From: a virus
Taxonomy: Duplodnaviria; Caudoviricetes
IMG/VR virus record: IMGVR_UViG_3300033076_000083
Span: 1-38,496 of that record
Reading direction: 5' to 3' (one strand)
Length of the DNA stretch: 38,496 nt
Position 1 is the first letter of the stretch, and every line of letters starts with the position of its first letter. A program made the translations under genes and the position numbers. Shown here piece by piece: positions 360 to 38,496 of the stretch. Under the pieces are notes generated by a model. That model had not been told where the DNA came from and ran no database searches. It saw only the letters and a list, made by a program, of their open reading frames with translations.

Positions 360-1027
360 TACAAAAGCCTCCCTTGTTCGTCAAACAAATACTTGTTGAG
401 ATCGGCGAAGTCCGCAAGAATCTCGTCATCAAGCAAGCCCTCGTATTCCTCTCTCAGCGCACGATAGATGTCTTGTGCAAATATCTTTGCCTTCAACATC
501 GCTGTCTCGATCCACTCGTTGATGCGCCCCTCTACGTCGAAGCTCTCGCGCAGTTGCTTAACACTCGCGCCTTGCATCACACCTTTATGAAGCACAGCGT
601 CGTCGTGAACACGTTCCCACTCAGTCCAGTCTGAGTAGTCATACGTCATTGTGTTCTCGTGGGTGTAGTGGTATGAGCGCCGCACGATGTGCAGGTCTTT
701 GTTGACCCACTCGTCGCGTATCAACTCGCACAAGATCATGTCCTCGCCGAAACTTGCGGACTCTTTGTCCGCGTGTTTCTCTATGAACTCAAGCAAGTCA
801 ACACTGCCTGTCCACGATGCGCCGTCACCTTGTGAGTAGAACCCACTGAAGCGTATGTCCTCGATGTTGAAGCCAAGCTCTTTGCCTTTCTGTTTCGATG
901 CTTCATACACGCAGTCCCACCACTCGTGGTCGGTGCGATACTCGACAAGTTTCTGTCGGGCACGCGAACGTGCAACCCCTTGTAGCTCGCGGTATGCGTA
1001 AGCTGTGATTGTGATTTCTATTGGCAT
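359..1027 (-). CDS. Hypothetical protein resembling the family often annotated 'antitoxin of toxin-antitoxin stability system'
   Basis: 222 aa with AGGAG RBS. Motifs WWDCVYE, IRFSGFYSQGDGASW and IYRALREEYE are recalled from that family, whose function is not established. Confidence 0.6.
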   Translation of the reverse strand: MPIEITITAYAYRELQGVARSRARQKLVEYRTDHEWWDCVYEASKQKGKELGFNIEDIRFSGFYSQGDGASWTGSVDLLEFIEKHADKESASFGEDMILCELIRDEWVNKDLHIVRRSYHYTHENTMTYDYSDWTEWERVHDDAVLHKGVMQGASVKQLRESFDVEGRINEWIETAMLKAKIFAQDIYRALREEYEGLLDDEILADFADLNKYLFDEQGRLL

Positions 1028-2648: not shown

Positions 2649-2836
2649 TTCATTACCTCCATACTGGTTACTGCCGCCTTGATGATGGCGCACCGCGCCG
2701 CTGCTTTGCATAGATAGTCGAACTCCTCTCTGCTGTTGATGTCTCCCTCGTCGAGCTTGTGCCCGATCTCTTTCAATACCTCTGTTGCATGTTCAAGCAC
2801 ATGCTGTGCGTCTGCTTTGTTTTTCAGGATGCTCAT
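2645..2836 (-). CDS. Phage hypothetical protein
   Basis: 63 aa MSILKNKAD..., initiation region AAGGAGAAAGCAAATGA. Confidence 0.75.
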   Translation of the reverse strand: MSILKNKADAQHVLEHATEVLKEIGHKLDEGDINSREEFDYLCKAAARCAIIKAAVTSMEVMK

Positions 2837-2973
2837 TTGCTTTCTCCTTGTTCTAAAGCCTCGGCGATGATGAGGTAGAACCACATCTGCTGGCAGTCCC
2901 CCTTGCTCTCGTAGAACCTCCGCGCCCAGTAACGTGCGAACCATGCGGCGTTGTCTCTGGTTTTCTGTTTCAT
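2833..2973 (-). CDS. Small phage hypothetical protein
   Basis: Below the ORF-track cut-off. 46 aa MKQKTRDNAAWFARYWARRFY...EQGESK with AAGGAG RBS. Confidence 0.7.
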   Translation of the reverse strand: MKQKTRDNAAWFARYWARRFYESKGDCQQMWFYLIIAEALEQGESK

Positions 2974-3142: not shown

Positions 3143-3348
3143 GCTCTTACTCCTTTGTGTGATGAGTTGAGGCCGACCAACAACTTGGGGTCGGTGATGA
3201 GGATGTAGTTGGACTTGGGCATGGGTGCGACTGTGTGCTTGACTTGCTTGGCGTGTTGCTCCCCGCATGTCAGGCATGTCCTATACCCTAGTTGCCAACG
3301 TAGCGCGGCAACGTAGTCACCGCAGTCGATACATTCTTTGTCAGTCAT
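3139..3348 (-). CDS. DksA/TraR C4-type zinc-finger protein
   Basis: CIDCGDYVAALRWQLGYRTCLTC matches the CxxC-x~17-CxxC DksA/TraR finger pattern. Confidence 0.7.
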   Translation of the reverse strand: MTDKECIDCGDYVAALRWQLGYRTCLTCGEQHAKQVKHTVAPMPKSNYILITDPKLLVGLNSSHKGVRA

Positions 3349-3614
3349 TTGATAAGTCCTTTCTCATACATCTGTTTGATTAGCGTGCCGTGGATGATTG
3401 AATACCCACGCTTGCGTCCTTCCTCGTCCATCCACCTGAGTTCCTCTGCGGGTGTCAGGTTGAACTCGTTGGCGTAGTAACAGCAAAAGTGGACGGCCAC
3501 ATCGAAAGATCGTGACGAATCGAACCACATCCCGTCCCCGTCTACGCATCCGTAGAAGTCCAACTCGTCTGCTGAGTAACGCTGATACTTTTTAAATTCT
3601 TCCCATGTTTTCAT
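3345..3614 (-). CDS. Phage hypothetical protein
   Basis: 89 aa, AAGGAGAGAGCAAATGA initiation region. Confidence 0.75.
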   Translation of the reverse strand: MKTWEEFKKYQRYSADELDFYGCVDGDGMWFDSSRSFDVAVHFCCYYANEFNLTPAEELRWMDEEGRKRGYSIIHGTLIKQMYEKGLIK

Positions 3615-3769
3615 TTGCTCTCTCCTTGTTTGATGATTGCTACTAGCTTGTCACGCAGTGCGTTGAACTTGTCACACACCTCGTCGTCGTAGTCGAACGC
3701 ATCTGCTTCTCTGTCGCAGAGGTCTGCGAGGTCGGACAGTTCTTCGCGGGTTAGTTTCATTTCAGTCAT
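3611..3769 (-). CDS. Small acidic phage hypothetical protein
   Basis: Below the track cut-off. 52 aa MTEMKLTREELSDLADLCDRE...QGESK, AAGGAGAAAGCAAATGA initiation region. Confidence 0.75.
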   Translation of the reverse strand: MTEMKLTREELSDLADLCDREADAFDYDDEVCDKFNALRDKLVAIIKQGESK

Positions 3770-3814
3770 TTGCTTTCTCCTTTGGTTGATGCGGACAAGT
3801 TGTCCGCGAGTTTC

Positions 3815-4650: not shown

Positions 4651-4834
4651 CCGCATGGATACTAGCTTTCTTGGTGGTTGCGTCAAACAGACCCACGCTA
4701 TTTGAGAAGTGCTCTTGGGAAAAACAAAAGAACCACACCCACTTGCTTCTTCTTTTATATATATATTTCTTTTTTTCTTTTTTATATATAGGTGTGTTGT
4801 GTCAGACAGGTGGACAACGCTAGTATCCATGCGG
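4651..4834. repeat. 16-bp perfect inverted repeat flanking an AT-rich core (candidate origin)
   Basis: CCGCATGGATACTAGC at 4651-4666 and its reverse complement at 4819-4834, with a (TA)n/poly-T tract at ~4748-4790. Confidence 0.75.
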
Positions 4835-4948
4835 GTTAGAGGATACCCACGCAGAGTGCATCGCGTGGTGAACGCTTGACCTAGGTGGGTATGTGGTTTT
4901 TAAGCAACACCTTCTCTGCAATACGTTGCGGACAGATTGTCCGCGAGT

Positions 4949-5397: not shown

Positions 5398-5491
5398 GAT
5401 GATCTCCAAGGTTGACAAGAAAAAGAACAGCGGCGAGGGTTGATTCCCCCGCCGCCTTGAAAAAACTCGCGGACAAGTTGTCCGCAAGCTG

Positions 5492-5854
5492 TCACACAGA
5501 AGCCAAGAAGCGGCGCTTCTCAGCACCAGTCAGTGCGTTGTAGGCCTTGAGCAGTTTGGCCACGTTGTCGGTCTTGTGGGCTTTGCCAGTGCGTTGTGGC
5601 AAGTCCGCGCTCGGGAAGCACACTTGCAAGACGCGGTTCATGGCGCGCTCGGCGGCGCTGTCGCGTGGCAACTTAGCGCCACGTTGTCCCTGCTCGATGC
5701 GGGCGTTGTGTTTCTTCGCGGCCCACTCCATTGCGAGTGGCTTGGCGGTTGCGCGGTCACCGATGCCGAGTGCGATTAGGCGCTCTGCAAAACTTGCGGA
5801 CGATTTGTCCGCGTCGTTGAACACTGCGAAGATGGCTTGTTTGTTTACGTTCAT
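5492..5854 (-). CDS. First early gene, basic hypothetical protein
   Basis: 120 aa MNVNKQAIF..., GGAG RBS, directly downstream of the leftward promoter. Confidence 0.75.
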   Translation of the reverse strand: MNVNKQAIFAVFNDADKSSASFAERLIALGIGDRATAKPLAMEWAAKKHNARIEQGQRGAKLPRDSAAERAMNRVLQVCFPSADLPQRTGKAHKTDNVAKLLKAYNALTGAEKRRFLASV

Positions 5855-5869
5855 GATTAACTCCAAATG

Positions 5870-5890
5870 AAAAAGCCCGCAGATGCGGGC
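5870..5890 (-). terminator. Intrinsic terminator-like hairpin in the early leader
   Basis: Minus strand reads GCCCGC-ATCT-GCGGGC-TTTTT. Confidence 0.55.
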
Positions 5891-5927
5891 GAAACGTCGC
5901 AGGGCGAATTCCCTAGCAACGAGTTGT

Positions 5928-5936
5928 ATTATAACA
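5928..5936 (-). promoter_or_regulatory. Extended -10 sigma70 promoter for the early arm
   Basis: Minus strand reads TGtTATAAT, a perfect extended -10, about 75 bp upstream of the first early gene. Confidence 0.7.
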
Positions 5937-6163
5937 CACAACGTATTTCTGAATACCTTTGACACTCAGTTTTGCCGTGGCTCAACCCCACGGTGGGGGC
6001 ATCACCCCATATTGGCCGTGCCGTGCCTTGTCGCCGTGAACACTGTTTCGCAACCGCACAGACCACTTTGTAAAATCCTAGACAACACCCCCGGCAAAAT
6101 CTCTACCCCACCCCAAAAATTTTTTAAAAAATTTGGAAAAACCTCTTGTCAAACGCAAGACAT

Positions 6164-6193
6164 AAAAAAGCCCCCAGTGTTTCCACCGGGGGC
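6164..6193 (-). terminator. Intrinsic terminator (leftward)
   Basis: Minus strand reads GCCCCCGGTG-GAAA-CACTGGGGGC-TTTTTT. Confidence 0.85.
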
Positions 6194-6258
6194 GTGAATG
6201 GGGCTGACCCCAGAGGAGATAGCAAATGAGCAAAGCGGCAAACCGCTTGACACCTGCG
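6164..6258 (-). ncRNA. Candidate trans-acting antisense sRNA (~95 nt)
   Basis: Bounded by a TTGCGG-17-TACACT promoter and a strong terminator. Two hairpins flank an unpaired seed complementary to early-gene RBS/start regions. Confidence 0.55.
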
Positions 6259-6293
6259 AAAGTAAGTGTACACTCCGCGCCACGGGACCGCAA
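6247..6293. promoter_or_regulatory. Overlapping bidirectional sigma70-like promoters sharing the palindrome AGTGTACACT
   Basis: Plus strand: TTGACA(6247-6252)-16 bp-TACACT(6269-6274). Minus strand: TTGCGG(6293-6288)-17 bp-TACACT(6270-6265). Confidence 0.65.
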
Positions 6294-6311
6294 CAGACCG
6301 CAGGAGCAAGA

Positions 6312-6935
6312 GTGCTTGAACATTTGGTGCAATACCAGCCGGAGGTAGAACCTCTCGGTGACTTCGTAGAATTGGACGACGCGTCGGCCAGTGAAATCCT
6401 GTCCGCACAACACGCTGCGGCAGACTGGTTGGACGAGCTGGGTGCACCGCCCGCCGACGAAGTCACAAAGCAAGCACAGACACAAGCGGCCCGCAAAGCT
6501 TTCGGAACGCTTACAACCTCCGTAGACACCTCCGCGCAGAAAGCGGACCTCATTCAGCTCAAGACCCCCGAGGCCGTGCGCCACATCACCGGTATGCTGA
6601 CCGCGTATGACTGGGAATTTGTACAGCAGGCCAAGGAGCTTCGCGGGTACACGGTGGCCAAGCTGGTGGAGGAGACACAAAACCCCAACGCCAACATCCG
6701 GCTCAAAGCTTTGGGCTTACTGGGCAAGGTCACCGAGGTCGGGCTGTTCACCGACAAGGTCGAGATCAAGAAAACGGACCTGACCGAAGCCGAGATCGAC
6801 GCCAAGCTCAAGGAGAAGCTGGCCAAGTTCATGGATGTGAGCGACGCCGAGGTCATTGACGTCGAAGACGTGTCGAAAAAAGACGAAAACCCAGATGCAC
6901 ACGACATCGACCCAGAAAATCCTGACGCCGAGTGA
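6312..6935 (+). CDS. Putative terminase small subunit
   Basis: GTG start after AGGAG RBS and downstream of the promoter. 207 aa, directly upstream of and overlapping TerL, C-terminal IRLKALGLLGK...GLFTDKVEI motif. Confidence 0.6.
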   Translation: MLEHLVQYQPEVEPLGDFVELDDASASEILSAQHAAADWLDELGAPPADEVTKQAQTQAARKAFGTLTTSVDTSAQKADLIQLKTPEAVRHITGMLTAYDWEFVQQAKELRGYTVAKLVEETQNPNANIRLKALGLLGKVTEVGLFTDKVEIKKTDLTEAEIDAKLKEKLAKFMDVSDAEVIDVEDVSKKDENPDAHDIDPENPDAE

Positions 6936-23480: not shown

Positions 23481-24092
23481 ATGTCTCAAGTACGAGTTTC
23501 AGGCAACGCAAGCGGAACAGGCATCCTGACCGTTACGTCGCCCAACACAAACAGCAACTACACACTGACACTGCCTGCGGTTACGGGCACGATTTTGACA
23601 AACAATACACTTCCTGCTGGAACTGTGTTGCAGGTTGTCACCGCTACTAAAACAGACACCACGTCTTTTGCGGGGACAAACACTTGGTTCAATATATCAG
23701 GCGTTTCTGCAAGCATTACACCTTCAAGCTCATCCAGCAGAATTCTTGTTTTGTGTGTCACGATGTACAGCGCAACCAGCGGTTATAACGCCGTTAATTT
23801 TGCTGTTGCAAGAAACGGGACTAGAACACCCATTGGTGATACCGCTGGCTCTGCAAGAGTTTCCGCCTTTTGGGGTTCTGACGACGTTTATGGCGCTGGT
23901 GCAAATGCAGACCAAACAATCATCATGTATGTAGATTCCCCTGCAACAACATCATCTGTAACGTATCAACTACAAGGCAACAACGCTCGGGATTCGGAAA
24001 CTATTTACATCAACCGTGAAGCGAATGATGCTGACAACGCGCAGACAACTCGTGGCGTTTCAACAATTACATTGATGGAGATTGCGGGATGA
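23481..24092 (+). CDS. Tail fibre distal / receptor-binding module 1
   Basis: 203 aa, VLQVV...SITPSSSSSRILV...DSPATTSSVTY...STITLMEIA. Confidence 0.65.
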   Translation: MSQVRVSGNASGTGILTVTSPNTNSNYTLTLPAVTGTILTNNTLPAGTVLQVVTATKTDTTSFAGTNTWFNISGVSASITPSSSSSRILVLCVTMYSATSGYNAVNFAVARNGTRTPIGDTAGSARVSAFWGSDDVYGAGANADQTIIMYVDSPATTSSVTYQLQGNNARDSETIYINREANDADNAQTTRGVSTITLMEIAG

Positions 24093-35995: not shown

Positions 35996-38496
35996 ATGCC
36001 AAACTACATCCGGCTCCCAAATGGCTCCTTCTACGCAGCACCCGATGGCCTCTCACCATCACAAGCGTACGAAAAGGCTTATCAGGACTACCCGGAAGCG
36101 TTTGGTGCTGCTCCCGCAGCACAGCCAGAATCTGGCTTCGTTCCCGCACTGCAAGCTGGCTACAAAGGACTCAAAGGTGACATCGCCGCGCTTGCTGGCC
36201 GCGCCGGGGTTATGGATGTAGAGGCTGCGGAGAAGTACCGTCAGCAGCAAGAGGAAGAAGCCAAGAAGATTTTCAAGCCAACCGAGAAAGGTTGGACCGA
36301 AGCGCCCCTGACCAAAGCTGGTGAACTTCTTGGTGGCTCACTGCCCTACATGGCCGCGCCCGTTGTCGCTGGTGTCGCCGCCCCAGAAGGTGCTGCCGCG
36401 CTGGGCGCTGCTGGCTTGGCATCGCTGGCCCAGTTCACAGGCTCGAACCTTTCCCGTCAGGTTGAAGAAGGCAAGCGTTTGGCCGAGACAAGTCTTGGCT
36501 CTGCTGCCGCAGCCGCCGTGCCGCAAGCGGCGTTGGACATGCTGTCGTTCAAGATGGCCCCCGGCATCCGCAACATTTTTGCTGCTGGTGGCAAAGAGCT
36601 TTCCGAGAAAGCCGCAGAACAGTACGCCAAACAAGGCATGGCGCAGATCGCCAAAGACTACACACTGGCTACCGGCAAAGCAATGGGTGCGGAGGGTCTG
36701 ACCGAAGCTGGCCAGCAACTGTTTGAGCGTTTGCAAGCTGGCTTGAATCTGACCGATGAGCAAGCGCGTGATGAATACTGGCAGTCACTTGTTGGCGGTG
36801 CCGTGCTTGGTGGTGCGTTGGCTCCGGCTGGCCGCTACGTTGAACGTGGTGCAGAGATGCGCCGTCAACAAGAGGACGAGGCTAAGAAGAAAGCTGCTGA
36901 ACGTGCCGCAGGCATCAAAGCAGAGGAAGAGCGCAAAGCCAAGCCGGACTACTTCGTGCCGTTTGTCGAGGACTACATGGCGCGTGAGGAAGCGTTCAAG
37001 CAGCAACGCCAAGAACTAAAGAAACCCGGCAAAGATGCTACGCCCGCAGACCAAGCGGCGTACAAAGAGCTTCGTGATGCGTTGGAGGTCAAGCGCAAAG
37101 AGTTGGAAGGCGAGTCCGCAGAGTTCAACAAGCTCAAGCCTTTATACGCCCAGTACCAGCAAGCGCAGACACAAGCTAAACGCGCACCTGAAGATTTGAT
37201 GATGGAGCACTTGGGTATGAAAATGCCCGAGGCAATTAAGACTCCGACTCAAACCCGCGTTGACGAGTTTGGGCGCATCACCGAGGAACCCATTCGCAAA
37301 CCCGGCATGCCCCCGCTGTTGCAGTATGCCGCTGGTCAAGTTGAAGCGGCTCGTGGCGTTGGCCAAATGGATGCCGCCGATTACGCCGACTACTTGATGC
37401 AAGACCCTGCGCAAGCCGCGCAGCTTGTGAAGAACCGCGTCAAGATTCCGGGATTGGCCAAAAACGAAAACAGCGTCGTGCTCGATGGGTTGAAGTTGCG
37501 CTTGCAAGAGCAAGAGAAAAAGCGTGCTGCGGAGACCAAAGAAGAGTTTGCCAAGCGCGAAGAACTCCTCAAAGCGCCTGTGCTGCCCGAAGACGAGCAG
37601 AAGTACCAAGACGTCATTGATTTTGCGAAAGAGTCCCGCGATCGCGGCGACGAAGACATGCGCCACCTCAACGAGCAGTTCGTTGACGCGCTGACCACAA
37701 AAGCCCCCGCTGTCGATGTTGGCGACAACATCAAGATCACCCCGCAAGCCGAGCGCCTACGCAACCGCGTGGAAGAGTTGCTGCAAACAGCGGACCAATC
37801 TGATCGTGAGTATCGTGCTGCCCGTGCAGCCAAGGAACGCGGCGCTGCCGCTGAAGCTTTTGATCGTGGCCGCACAGCTTTGCAACAACTGGACTCTTTG
37901 GCCAAATCCGGTGGCGATTACGTCAAAGAAGTGATTGAGGCACGTCGTGCCCAGCTCGCTGCGTTCAACAAAGTGCAGGATGTCACCGAGCAACTGCGCA
38001 CAGAACAAACACTGGGCGGTGCCAACAAAGAGATGGCTGCGTCCACCGAGGAAACGCTGGCCAACGAAGCTGCACGTCAGCGTTCGGTCTTTATCACCAA
38101 CGCACTGAAAGAAGCTGCACTGCACCGCCGTGCGCAAGGTCTGCCTGCGCTGACACAGGACGAAGCGATCAAAGCCGCGTCTAAACTTTACGATACCTTC
38201 AACGACTGGATTGAGCGTGCCAAGACGTTGCCGCAGCAAGCCGAGTACGAAGAGCAGATCGTTGAGCCTGCGCAGATGCGGGCCAACAAGATCGTCAAGC
38301 CTGCTGTTACCAAACGTGTTGAGGTAAAGCCTGCGGTCAAGGGCATCACACAAGCCGAGATCAAACACTTCCAACAGCGCGTGCAGGCCATCCAGCGCCA
38401 GTTGCTTGAGCTGCCTGAAAGAAAAATACAAGTTGAAAAGCCGCTGCTGCGTCGCCAATACGCTGCGTCAGAAGCAGAGAAAGTTGCCGAGGCTCG
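35996..38496 (+). CDS. Large internal virion protein (runs off window, >830 aa)
   Basis: Absent from the ORF track because no stop lies inside the window. Begins MPNYIRLPNGSFYAAPDGLSPSQAYEKAY..., then Ala/Gly-rich EGLTEAGQQ.LER region and long helical stretches. Confidence 0.8.
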   Translation, partial: MPNYIRLPNGSFYAAPDGLSPSQAYEKAYQDYPEAFGAAPAAQPESGFVPALQAGYKGLKGDIAALAGRAGVMDVEAAEKYRQQQEEEAKKIFKPTEKGWTEAPLTKAGELLGGSLPYMAAPVVAGVAAPEGAAALGAAGLASLAQFTGSNLSRQVEEGKRLAETSLGSAAAAAVPQAALDMLSFKMAPGIRNIFAAGGKELSEKAAEQYAKQGMAQIAKDYTLATGKAMGAEGLTEAGQQLFERLQAGLNLTDEQARDEYWQSLVGGAVLGGALAPAGRYVERGAEMRRQQEDEAKKKAAERAAGIKAEEERKAKPDYFVPFVEDYMAREEAFKQQRQELKKPGKDATPADQAAYKELRDALEVKRKELEGESAEFNKLKPLYAQYQQAQTQAKRAPEDLMMEHLGMKMPEAIKTPTQTRVDEFGRITEEPIRKPGMPPLLQYAAGQVEAARGVGQMDAADYADYLMQDPAQAAQLVKNRVKIPGLAKNENSVVLDGLKLRLQEQEKKRAAETKEEFAKREELLKAPVLPEDEQKYQDVIDFAKESRDRGDEDMRHLNEQFVDALTTKAPAVDVGDNIKITPQAERLRNRVEELLQTADQSDREYRAARAAKERGAAAEAFDRGRTALQQLDSLAKSGGDYVKEVIEARRAQLAAFNKVQDVTEQLRTEQTLGGANKEMAASTEETLANEAARQRSVFITNALKEAALHRRAQGLPALTQDEAIKAASKLYDTFNDWIERAKTLPQQAEYEEQIVEPAQMRANKIVKPAVTKRVEVKPAVKGITQAEIKHFQQRVQAIQRQLLELPERKIQVEKPLLRRQYAASEAEKVAEA

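Follow-up and report, generated by a model that had tools for sequence, protein, structure and literature searches.

A conserved, uncatalogued phage RNA unit with predicted antisense control of ribosome binding sites

We describe a real, conserved and uncatalogued RNA unit in a phage family that is uncultured, aquatic and widespread, whose sequence points to antisense control of ribosome binding sites (RBS). The unit is very probably an RNA gene. We consider it probable that its product is a trans-acting anti-RBS small RNA (sRNA) of ~94 nt, which would pair with tags at the starts of early genes and block ribosome loading, with repression as the presumed outcome. The closest known systems are the P1/P7 c4 RNA by mechanism and the SAS repeats of mycobacteriophages by layout.

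Genomic Context

The window, i.e., the whole stretch of 38,496 nucleotides analyzed here, is a partial phage record (38.5 kb, 61% complete). Left of ~5850 it carries small ORFs on the minus strand, and rightward from 6312 a hypothetical gene at the terS position, followed by terL, portal, GroES, capsid, tail, and lysis genes. We label these two sets "early" and "late" from gene content and strand. The first late gene (6312..6935, plus strand, 207 aa) overlaps terL and is a small terminase by position only: a PHROG search of its product returned no family, a tblastn search of phage records gave no match, and Pfam Terminase_2 matches one of 41 homologues (E 0.007).

The TerL of the window is 47-52% identical to those of HTVC023P/HTVC027P-type phages, DSL-LC04, and MinM2. 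In five complete relatives no PF00589 tyrosine integrase was detected. The family contigs found in MAGs are four in number, short, and of mixed taxonomy.

Organization and Predicted Fold of the Unit

The predicted sRNA occupies 6164..6257 on the minus strand, with its +1 placed at G6257, and comprises a stem P1 (6222..6257), an anti-Shine-Dalgarno (anti-SD) linker (6213..6221), a stem P2 (6199..6212), and an intrinsic terminator P3 (6164..6193) made of a hairpin (6193-6170) followed by U6 (6169-6164). The folding energy of these 94 nt (6257-6164) is -46.2 kcal/mol, with a z-score of -4.5. A preliminary description of this DNA had read a minus-strand TTGCGG-17-TACACT promoter here (6293-6288 and 6270-6265), a UGGGG-UCAG-CCCCA hairpin (6212-6199), and a strong terminator (6193-6164), all of which are present. 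The small 5' hairpin that it proposed (AAGCGG-UUUG-CCGCUU) exists, but is merely the tip of the longer stem P1 (6257-6222).

The full seed, complementary to the SD, spacer, and AUG of tagged early genes, lies at 6214..6232 on the minus strand. It had been described as an unpaired 19-mer. In the predicted fold the linker of ~9 nt (6221-6213) is indeed open, but the anti-AUG half (CAUUUGC) is paired within the 3' strand of P1. The model predicts that the seed is a toehold with a masked extension, rather than an open 19-mer.

Read on the plus strand, the mirror motif precedes a 40-codon frame in the window (6226..6348), and in relatives it is followed by an ATG in 47 of 80 cases. A start codon is missing from 24 of these 80 motifs, the start-bearing ORFs range from 4 to 243 codons, and the plus promoter of the window sits downstream of the motif. 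We rejected the 40-aa ORF as a conserved gene, and give almost no credence to a small plus-strand ORF, with the motif as its RBS, as the whole explanation.

Conservation in Related Phages

Two protein scans yielded 155 loci, and 94 distinct ones, window included, had sufficient upstream DNA. As the preliminary description had anticipated, the hairpin-seed-hairpin-terminator unit recurs in related phages upstream of the terS position: 88 of the 94 carry both the terminator and the promoter box. Of the six misses, five belong to a single clade; the sixth, L078, has an A-run shorter than our terminator rule demands. Stability favors the minus strand in 85 of the 88, and that strand has 320 G·U pairs among 2278 pairs, vs. 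72 on the plus strand.

RNAalifold recovered just four terminator pairs from a MAFFT alignment, in which the stems are out of register, and we therefore relied on folding each sequence against its shuffles and on a sequence-only model. Measured against 30 shuffles each, P1 outdid 29 or all of them in 79 of 86 units, and P2 in 70 of 82 segments; the fold of P2 is kept, while its sequence is variable and barely conserved in the alignment. Across 86 relatives the CUCC of the linker has an unpaired probability of 0.94-0.95, and the positions 3-12 nt 5' of it just 0.04-0.36.

The two strands of P1 are conserved differently. Among 130 distinct units chosen by the UGC-linker pattern, a choice that itself fixes the G and C, 116 have fixed letters in the 3' strand of P1 and partners that alternate between Watson-Crick and G·U (U:A/U:G 51/41 and 64/37; G:U/G:C 59/57). 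One-sided conservation of this kind is expected of a strand that has a second, fixed partner. Together with the G·U pairs and the TTG-17-TAYACT promoter, it argues for a leftward RNA.

We also searched viral contigs with the promoter pattern alone, which avoids selection on the seed. Of its 120 loci, 116 yielded the 109 distinct oriented matches analyzed, a set that overlaps the 94 loci above; the estimated number of viral stretches with the pattern is ~970. A family gene lies downstream in 65 of the 109. These 65 loci have both terminator and anti-SD in 63 cases, the terminator only in one, and neither in one. A terminator was found in none of the 44 matches outside the family.

The unit was not found in 20-33 kb stretches of the cultured relatives 023Pt_psg01, DSL-LC04, HTVC027P, and MinM2 (terL 47-52% identical), and no second copy was found in the unit-less records, which are fragments. 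Scans for distant homologues returned seven loci, the alignment of which gave no usable patterns.

Two structural variants were observed. Long forms of ~120-135 nt (L103, L110, L150, L209-, L219+, L238+, and L186+) add a TTGGC-loop-GCCAA hairpin in P1 and keep the seed, P2, and terminator unchanged. Four loci (L051, L061, L082, and L167) have a two-hairpin form without P2, which indicates that P2 is dispensable in some lineages.

A Predicted Promoter Sharing Its -10 Element With the Late Genes

One feature overlooked in the preliminary description is that the leftward -10 is a palindrome common to the plus-strand promoter. This box (6265..6274) reads TACACT on both strands and is a predicted bidirectional promoter. 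Leftward, its -35 is TTGCGG (6288..6293, minus strand), 17 nt from the TACACT at 6270-6265; rightward, the late-promoter -35 TTGACA (6247..6252, plus strand) overlaps P1 and serves the TACACT at 6269-6274. Over the 88 units the leftward -10 is TACACT in 59, TATACT in 27, and TAAACT in two, and the TTG of its -35 is spaced by 17 nt in 86 and by 18 nt in two. A rightward TTG is found in 83 of the 88, spaced by 18 nt (64 units), 17 nt (13), 19 nt (4), or 16 nt (2). The first paired base, where P1 begins, falls 6-7 nt past the leftward -10 in 82 of the 88 units and is a purine in 81 of those.

The five unit-less loci, all of one clade, have GTGTAA/TACACC at the leftward promoter and an intact rightward -10, TACATT; this loss counts as a single event.

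Symmetric -10 elements give divergent transcription in many bacteria (PMC12825309). In the available part of that source, start spacings of 18, 10, and 23 bp are reported for bidirectional promoters with a shared -10, 23 bp being the common one, and the two directions can be mutually exclusive. The phage unit resembles these promoters in the overlap of -10 elements on both strands and in its predicted start sites, ~23-25 bp apart. It differs from them, as far as that part goes, in keeping both -35s and in having a structured RNA as its predicted leftward product. We infer that the RNA would be co-expressed with the late genes; the left and right directions could also be mutually exclusive here.

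Divergent transcription of this sort (PMC12825309), a terminator oriented to suit a leftward stop, and the partial overlap of P1 with the plus-strand -35 would all fit a cis-acting element, an insulator or attenuator, that ends transcripts running leftward out of the symmetric late promoter; the mirror motif would then be a relic that recombination with the RBS repeats has preserved. We find this improbable. Such an element has no need of a conserved leftward -35 (88 of 88 at 17-18 nt), nor of stems P1 and P2 or of an anti-SD that is exposed and nearly invariant; one-sided stem conservation implies a second partner; and the leftward promoter has decayed precisely where the unit was lost.

Tagged Starts in the Window

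The second partner in the anti-RBS reading would be the starts of early genes. The preliminary description had listed matches of 18/19, 15/16, and 15/16 nt to the seed, with the mismatch at one fixed position, and all three were confirmed as starts of minus-strand ORFs. They belong to a 63-aa ORF (2645-2836; match at 2830..2848, predicted cofold -17.3 kcal/mol), an 89-aa ORF (3345-3614; 3611..3626, -12.9 kcal/mol), and a 52-aa ORF (3611-3769; 3766..3781, -16.8 kcal/mol). None of these ORFs falls in a Pfam or PHROG family. In a near-identical strain the spacer is altered at the second of these starts (3611..3626).

The sequence AGGAGANAGCAAATGA occurs four times in the window, at these three minus-strand gene starts and once on the plus strand at the unit, and 0 of 100 shuffled sequences had any match. 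When the whole RNA is cofolded with the three tags, P1 is predicted to be displaced. The weaker matches proposed earlier (ATG 2049, ATG 4564, and the late start at 23481) exist, but cofold weakly, at -5.9, -5.8, and -9.2 kcal/mol. Some untagged starts of the window also score well, namely ATG 1296 (-16.2 kcal/mol), ATG 2648 (-11.3), and the late ATG 33486 (-10.4).

Distribution of the Tag in Relatives

Among relatives the start tag is AGGAGA(A)AGCAAAUG. In counts of distinct GGAG starts, which are pooled and include kin, it is found at 144 of 744 early starts and at 5 of 211 late ones; the shorter GGAGAA occurs at 370 of 744 early vs. 24 of 211 late starts. By distance from the unit, tags are concentrated at 2-5 kb, on 108 of 291 starts, and sparse in the first 2 kb, on 4 of 116. 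They were seen in 97 of 513 gene families, and very unevenly: a 444-aa unknown family is tagged in 19 of 23 cases, a DUF2201 VWA/metallopeptidase in 12 of 18, another family in 11 of 17, and NinX in 8 of 19, whereas an M28 peptidase (0 of 22), an ATPase (0 of 16), and others (0 of 20 and 0 of 18) are tag-free. The suggested regulon of early genes with a standard initiation sequence would correspond to this gene-family-specific set of tagged early starts.

Near-complete genomes typically have a single mirror copy against several tags. Ten records were searched with the exact pattern: seven have one late-strand copy and 1-12 early-strand copies, another has two copies on the late strand, and the last two lack any there, their seed variant escaping the pattern. 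The sequence-only model gave one match per genome in the three genomes scanned whole.

In cofolds with the whole RNA, median energies are -14.0 kcal/mol for 134 tagged early starts, -8.0 for 458 other early starts, and -6.0 for 161 untagged late starts, and -10 kcal/mol or lower is reached by 83% of the first and 4% of the last. Among the 458 untagged early starts, 32% also reach this value.

Covariation of Seed and Targets

The preliminary description had called for a check of whether seeds and early RBS motifs co-vary. Seed-target covariation is partial and appears loose. On the early starts of its own genome, a seed has an advantage of ~-1 kcal/mol over foreign seeds (34 loci), with a median p of 0.002-0.004 when one locus is taken per clade (10-20 clusters). 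No such advantage was seen against late starts or with shuffled seeds. Sliding windows limit the effect to the seed and the adjoining edge of P2; a P2 20-mer that also gave an own-genome effect (z -3.0) lies at this seed-adjacent edge.

These permutation tests favor covariation, but loci with short seeds have mostly long tags (55 long, 28 short; long-seed loci 56 long, 3 short), and a quick tree offers only four independent pairs, with 2.3 changing the same way and 0.1 the opposite way (median p 0.5). The seed is steadier than the own starts of many lineages. A wobble bias in the tags (GT 12 vs. AC 4, p 0.04) was judged weak, the counts not being independent, and the 3-nt flank upstream of the SD gave no clear covariation. 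The similarity between mirror and tag could also be maintained by gene conversion between repeats.

Some of these data would suit an RNA that is real and has mainly foreign targets. These could be mRNAs of the host that carry AGGAGAA-type SDs, giving host shut-off, or early messages of related phages that superinfect the cell, giving exclusion. The sequence UUGCUUCUCCU is near-constant in lineages whose own starts rarely match it fully, short seeds stand alongside long tags, and the unit-less clade retains tags, at 9 of 55 starts vs. 147 of 647 in unit-bearing loci, on contigs that are 7-36% complete. The own-genome advantage of the seed and the avoidance of GGAGAA by late genes speak against foreign targets, as does the rarity of the full tag in two MAGs that contain family contigs and may not be the hosts (one occurrence in 1.9 Mb, none in 3.2 Mb). 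Overall, we hold foreign targets to be unlikely. Retention of tags in the unit-less clade does indicate that the RNA is not indispensable.

Proposed Mechanism

We thus return to control of the phage's own early genes. Leftward transcription would start from the promoter whose -10 is common to the late (packaging and virion) promoter. The open UCUCCU linker would nucleate on the Shine-Dalgarno sequence, and the mRNA would then displace the 5' strand of P1, so that pairing could grow through the spacer and AUG to about 15-18 bp. The resulting SD-to-AUG duplex would block initiation, probably at the onset of late transcription, and P2 and the terminator may protect the RNA. A duplex over the SD and AUG excludes the 30S subunit sterically.

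Pairing as predicted by cofolding would equally serve an RNA that acts on the tagged starts positively or on stability, by opening structure or by nuclease cleavage, and lambda OOP is reported with RNase III-dependent decay in the available part of PMC12197685. With the predicted duplex spanning the SD and AUG themselves, we regard such an action as quite improbable.

A bolder version of the anti-RBS reading is a barcode-and-mirror regulon, in which one RNA from the palindromic -10 of the late operon would silence all tagged early genes at the early-to-late switch by toehold strand displacement; the SAS repeats might have a similar explanation. We put this forward tentatively, as a plausible extension.

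If the phage does control its own genes in this way, the timing of a whole set of unrelated genes, in a phage with no integrase detected, would depend on one RNA and a shared RBS tag, and a gene could join the regulated set merely by gaining the tag. The unit would also be a natural toehold-type repressor of use in synthetic biology.

Comparison With Known Systems

Among the features of trans-encoded antisense sRNAs, an own promoter and an intrinsic terminator were found here by sequence conservation, as was a conserved, accessible seed to the SD/AUG, the open part of which is predicted to be the anti-SD only. We found no description of such a phage RNA in the literature searched, which consisted mostly of papers outside subscription.

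Like the role proposed here, the P1/P7 c4 RNA is a structured phage RNA that pairs near the RBS of an mRNA of the phage itself and blocks its translation (PMC12197685). As described in the available part of that source, c4 acts on one antirepressor mRNA in temperate phages, and its targeting sequences are likely in loops. In contrast, the unit has many unrelated candidate targets with a common RBS tag, and its seed consists of a linker plus a stem strand. The tagged families in relatives include the DUF2201 VWA/metallopeptidase and NinX, not the antirepressor (ant). Against Rfam, its C4 antisense model included, the window had nothing relevant up to E 5, and four relatives had nothing at the gathering score.

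VpdS, PreS, sar, and OOP (PMC12197685) are likewise short phage RNAs (50-90 nt) that act by base pairing, as predicted for the unit. Their targets are host genes, mixed host and phage mRNAs, or a single phage gene, and in the available part of the source none is described with a mirror of a common RBS tag. The candidate structured RNAs of PMC10690425, drawn from IMG/VR, have the same type of source data, and many have terminators. The seed strings had no match in part of the supplements of that study, and an unannotated entry for the unit is possible.

By layout, the closest parallel is the SAS/ESAS repeats of Cluster K mycobacteriophages (PMC3203893). Like the phage tag, they contain AGGAG and stand in one orientation at the starts of non-structural genes, and a single copy in the opposite orientation lies away from a gene start, as in our unit. 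The 13-bp SAS consensus GGGATAGGAGCCC and the tag AGGAGA(A)AGCAAATG have just AGGAG in common, and the hosts differ. The available text of PMC3203893 does not place an RNA gene at the inverted copy; the terms "antisense" and "small RNA" occur in it 0 times. Unlike that of SAS as described there, the inverted copy of the unit comes with a conserved promoter, fold, and terminator of its own.

The partner of SAS, RNA or protein, was left open by its authors (PMC3203893), and the mirror copy of our phages adjoins the late -35. The tag might then be a protein site, for a translational repressor or a DNA-binding factor, with the inverted copy a further protein site and not an antisense seed. The G·U bias, the terminator, and the promoter all favor the complement-bearing strand, not the tag strand, which makes a protein site very improbable. 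The antisense reading of the unit bears on the role of start-associated repeats in phages, and Cluster K phages are culturable and have a single inverted SAS.

Other Sequence Elements of the Window

A 17-bp palindrome, GCGGAC-N5-GTCCGC, occurs six times in the window (756-772, 1757-1773, 3791-3807, 4928-4944, 5469-5485, and 5796-5812), giving 12 strand matches vs. 1.55 expected. All copies are in the early region, some within ORFs, and lineage-specific versions are present in 3-7 copies in most relatives. These palindromes are likely operators for a phage DNA-binding protein and recall the ESAS repeats. Inverted repeats of 17 bp are found in the SAS phages as well (PMC3203893), but, unlike the SAS/ESAS case in the available part of that source, the palindromes of unit-bearing phages are unlinked to tagged starts.

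Past the RNA terminator, at ~6050-6160, conserved non-coding motifs (A/T tracts, TGTCAAAC, and C-runs) persist even in the unit-less clade; this region may serve in packaging, as a genome end, or as an origin. On the minus strand, just ahead of the first early ORF (5854), a TG-n-TATAAT early-promoter-like site has a terminator-like hairpin at most ~40 nt downstream (5875-5890 and ~5926-5934), an arrangement that suggests attenuation or antitermination where the early operon begins. The 249-aa early ORF is preceded by a long stretch of A and T only that includes TATATA runs (4750-4800), a possible origin or promoter element; similar AT runs are found in relatives. At 37142-38458, a long frame on the plus strand continues past the end of the window, and the two minus-strand ORFs listed there look like its shadows.
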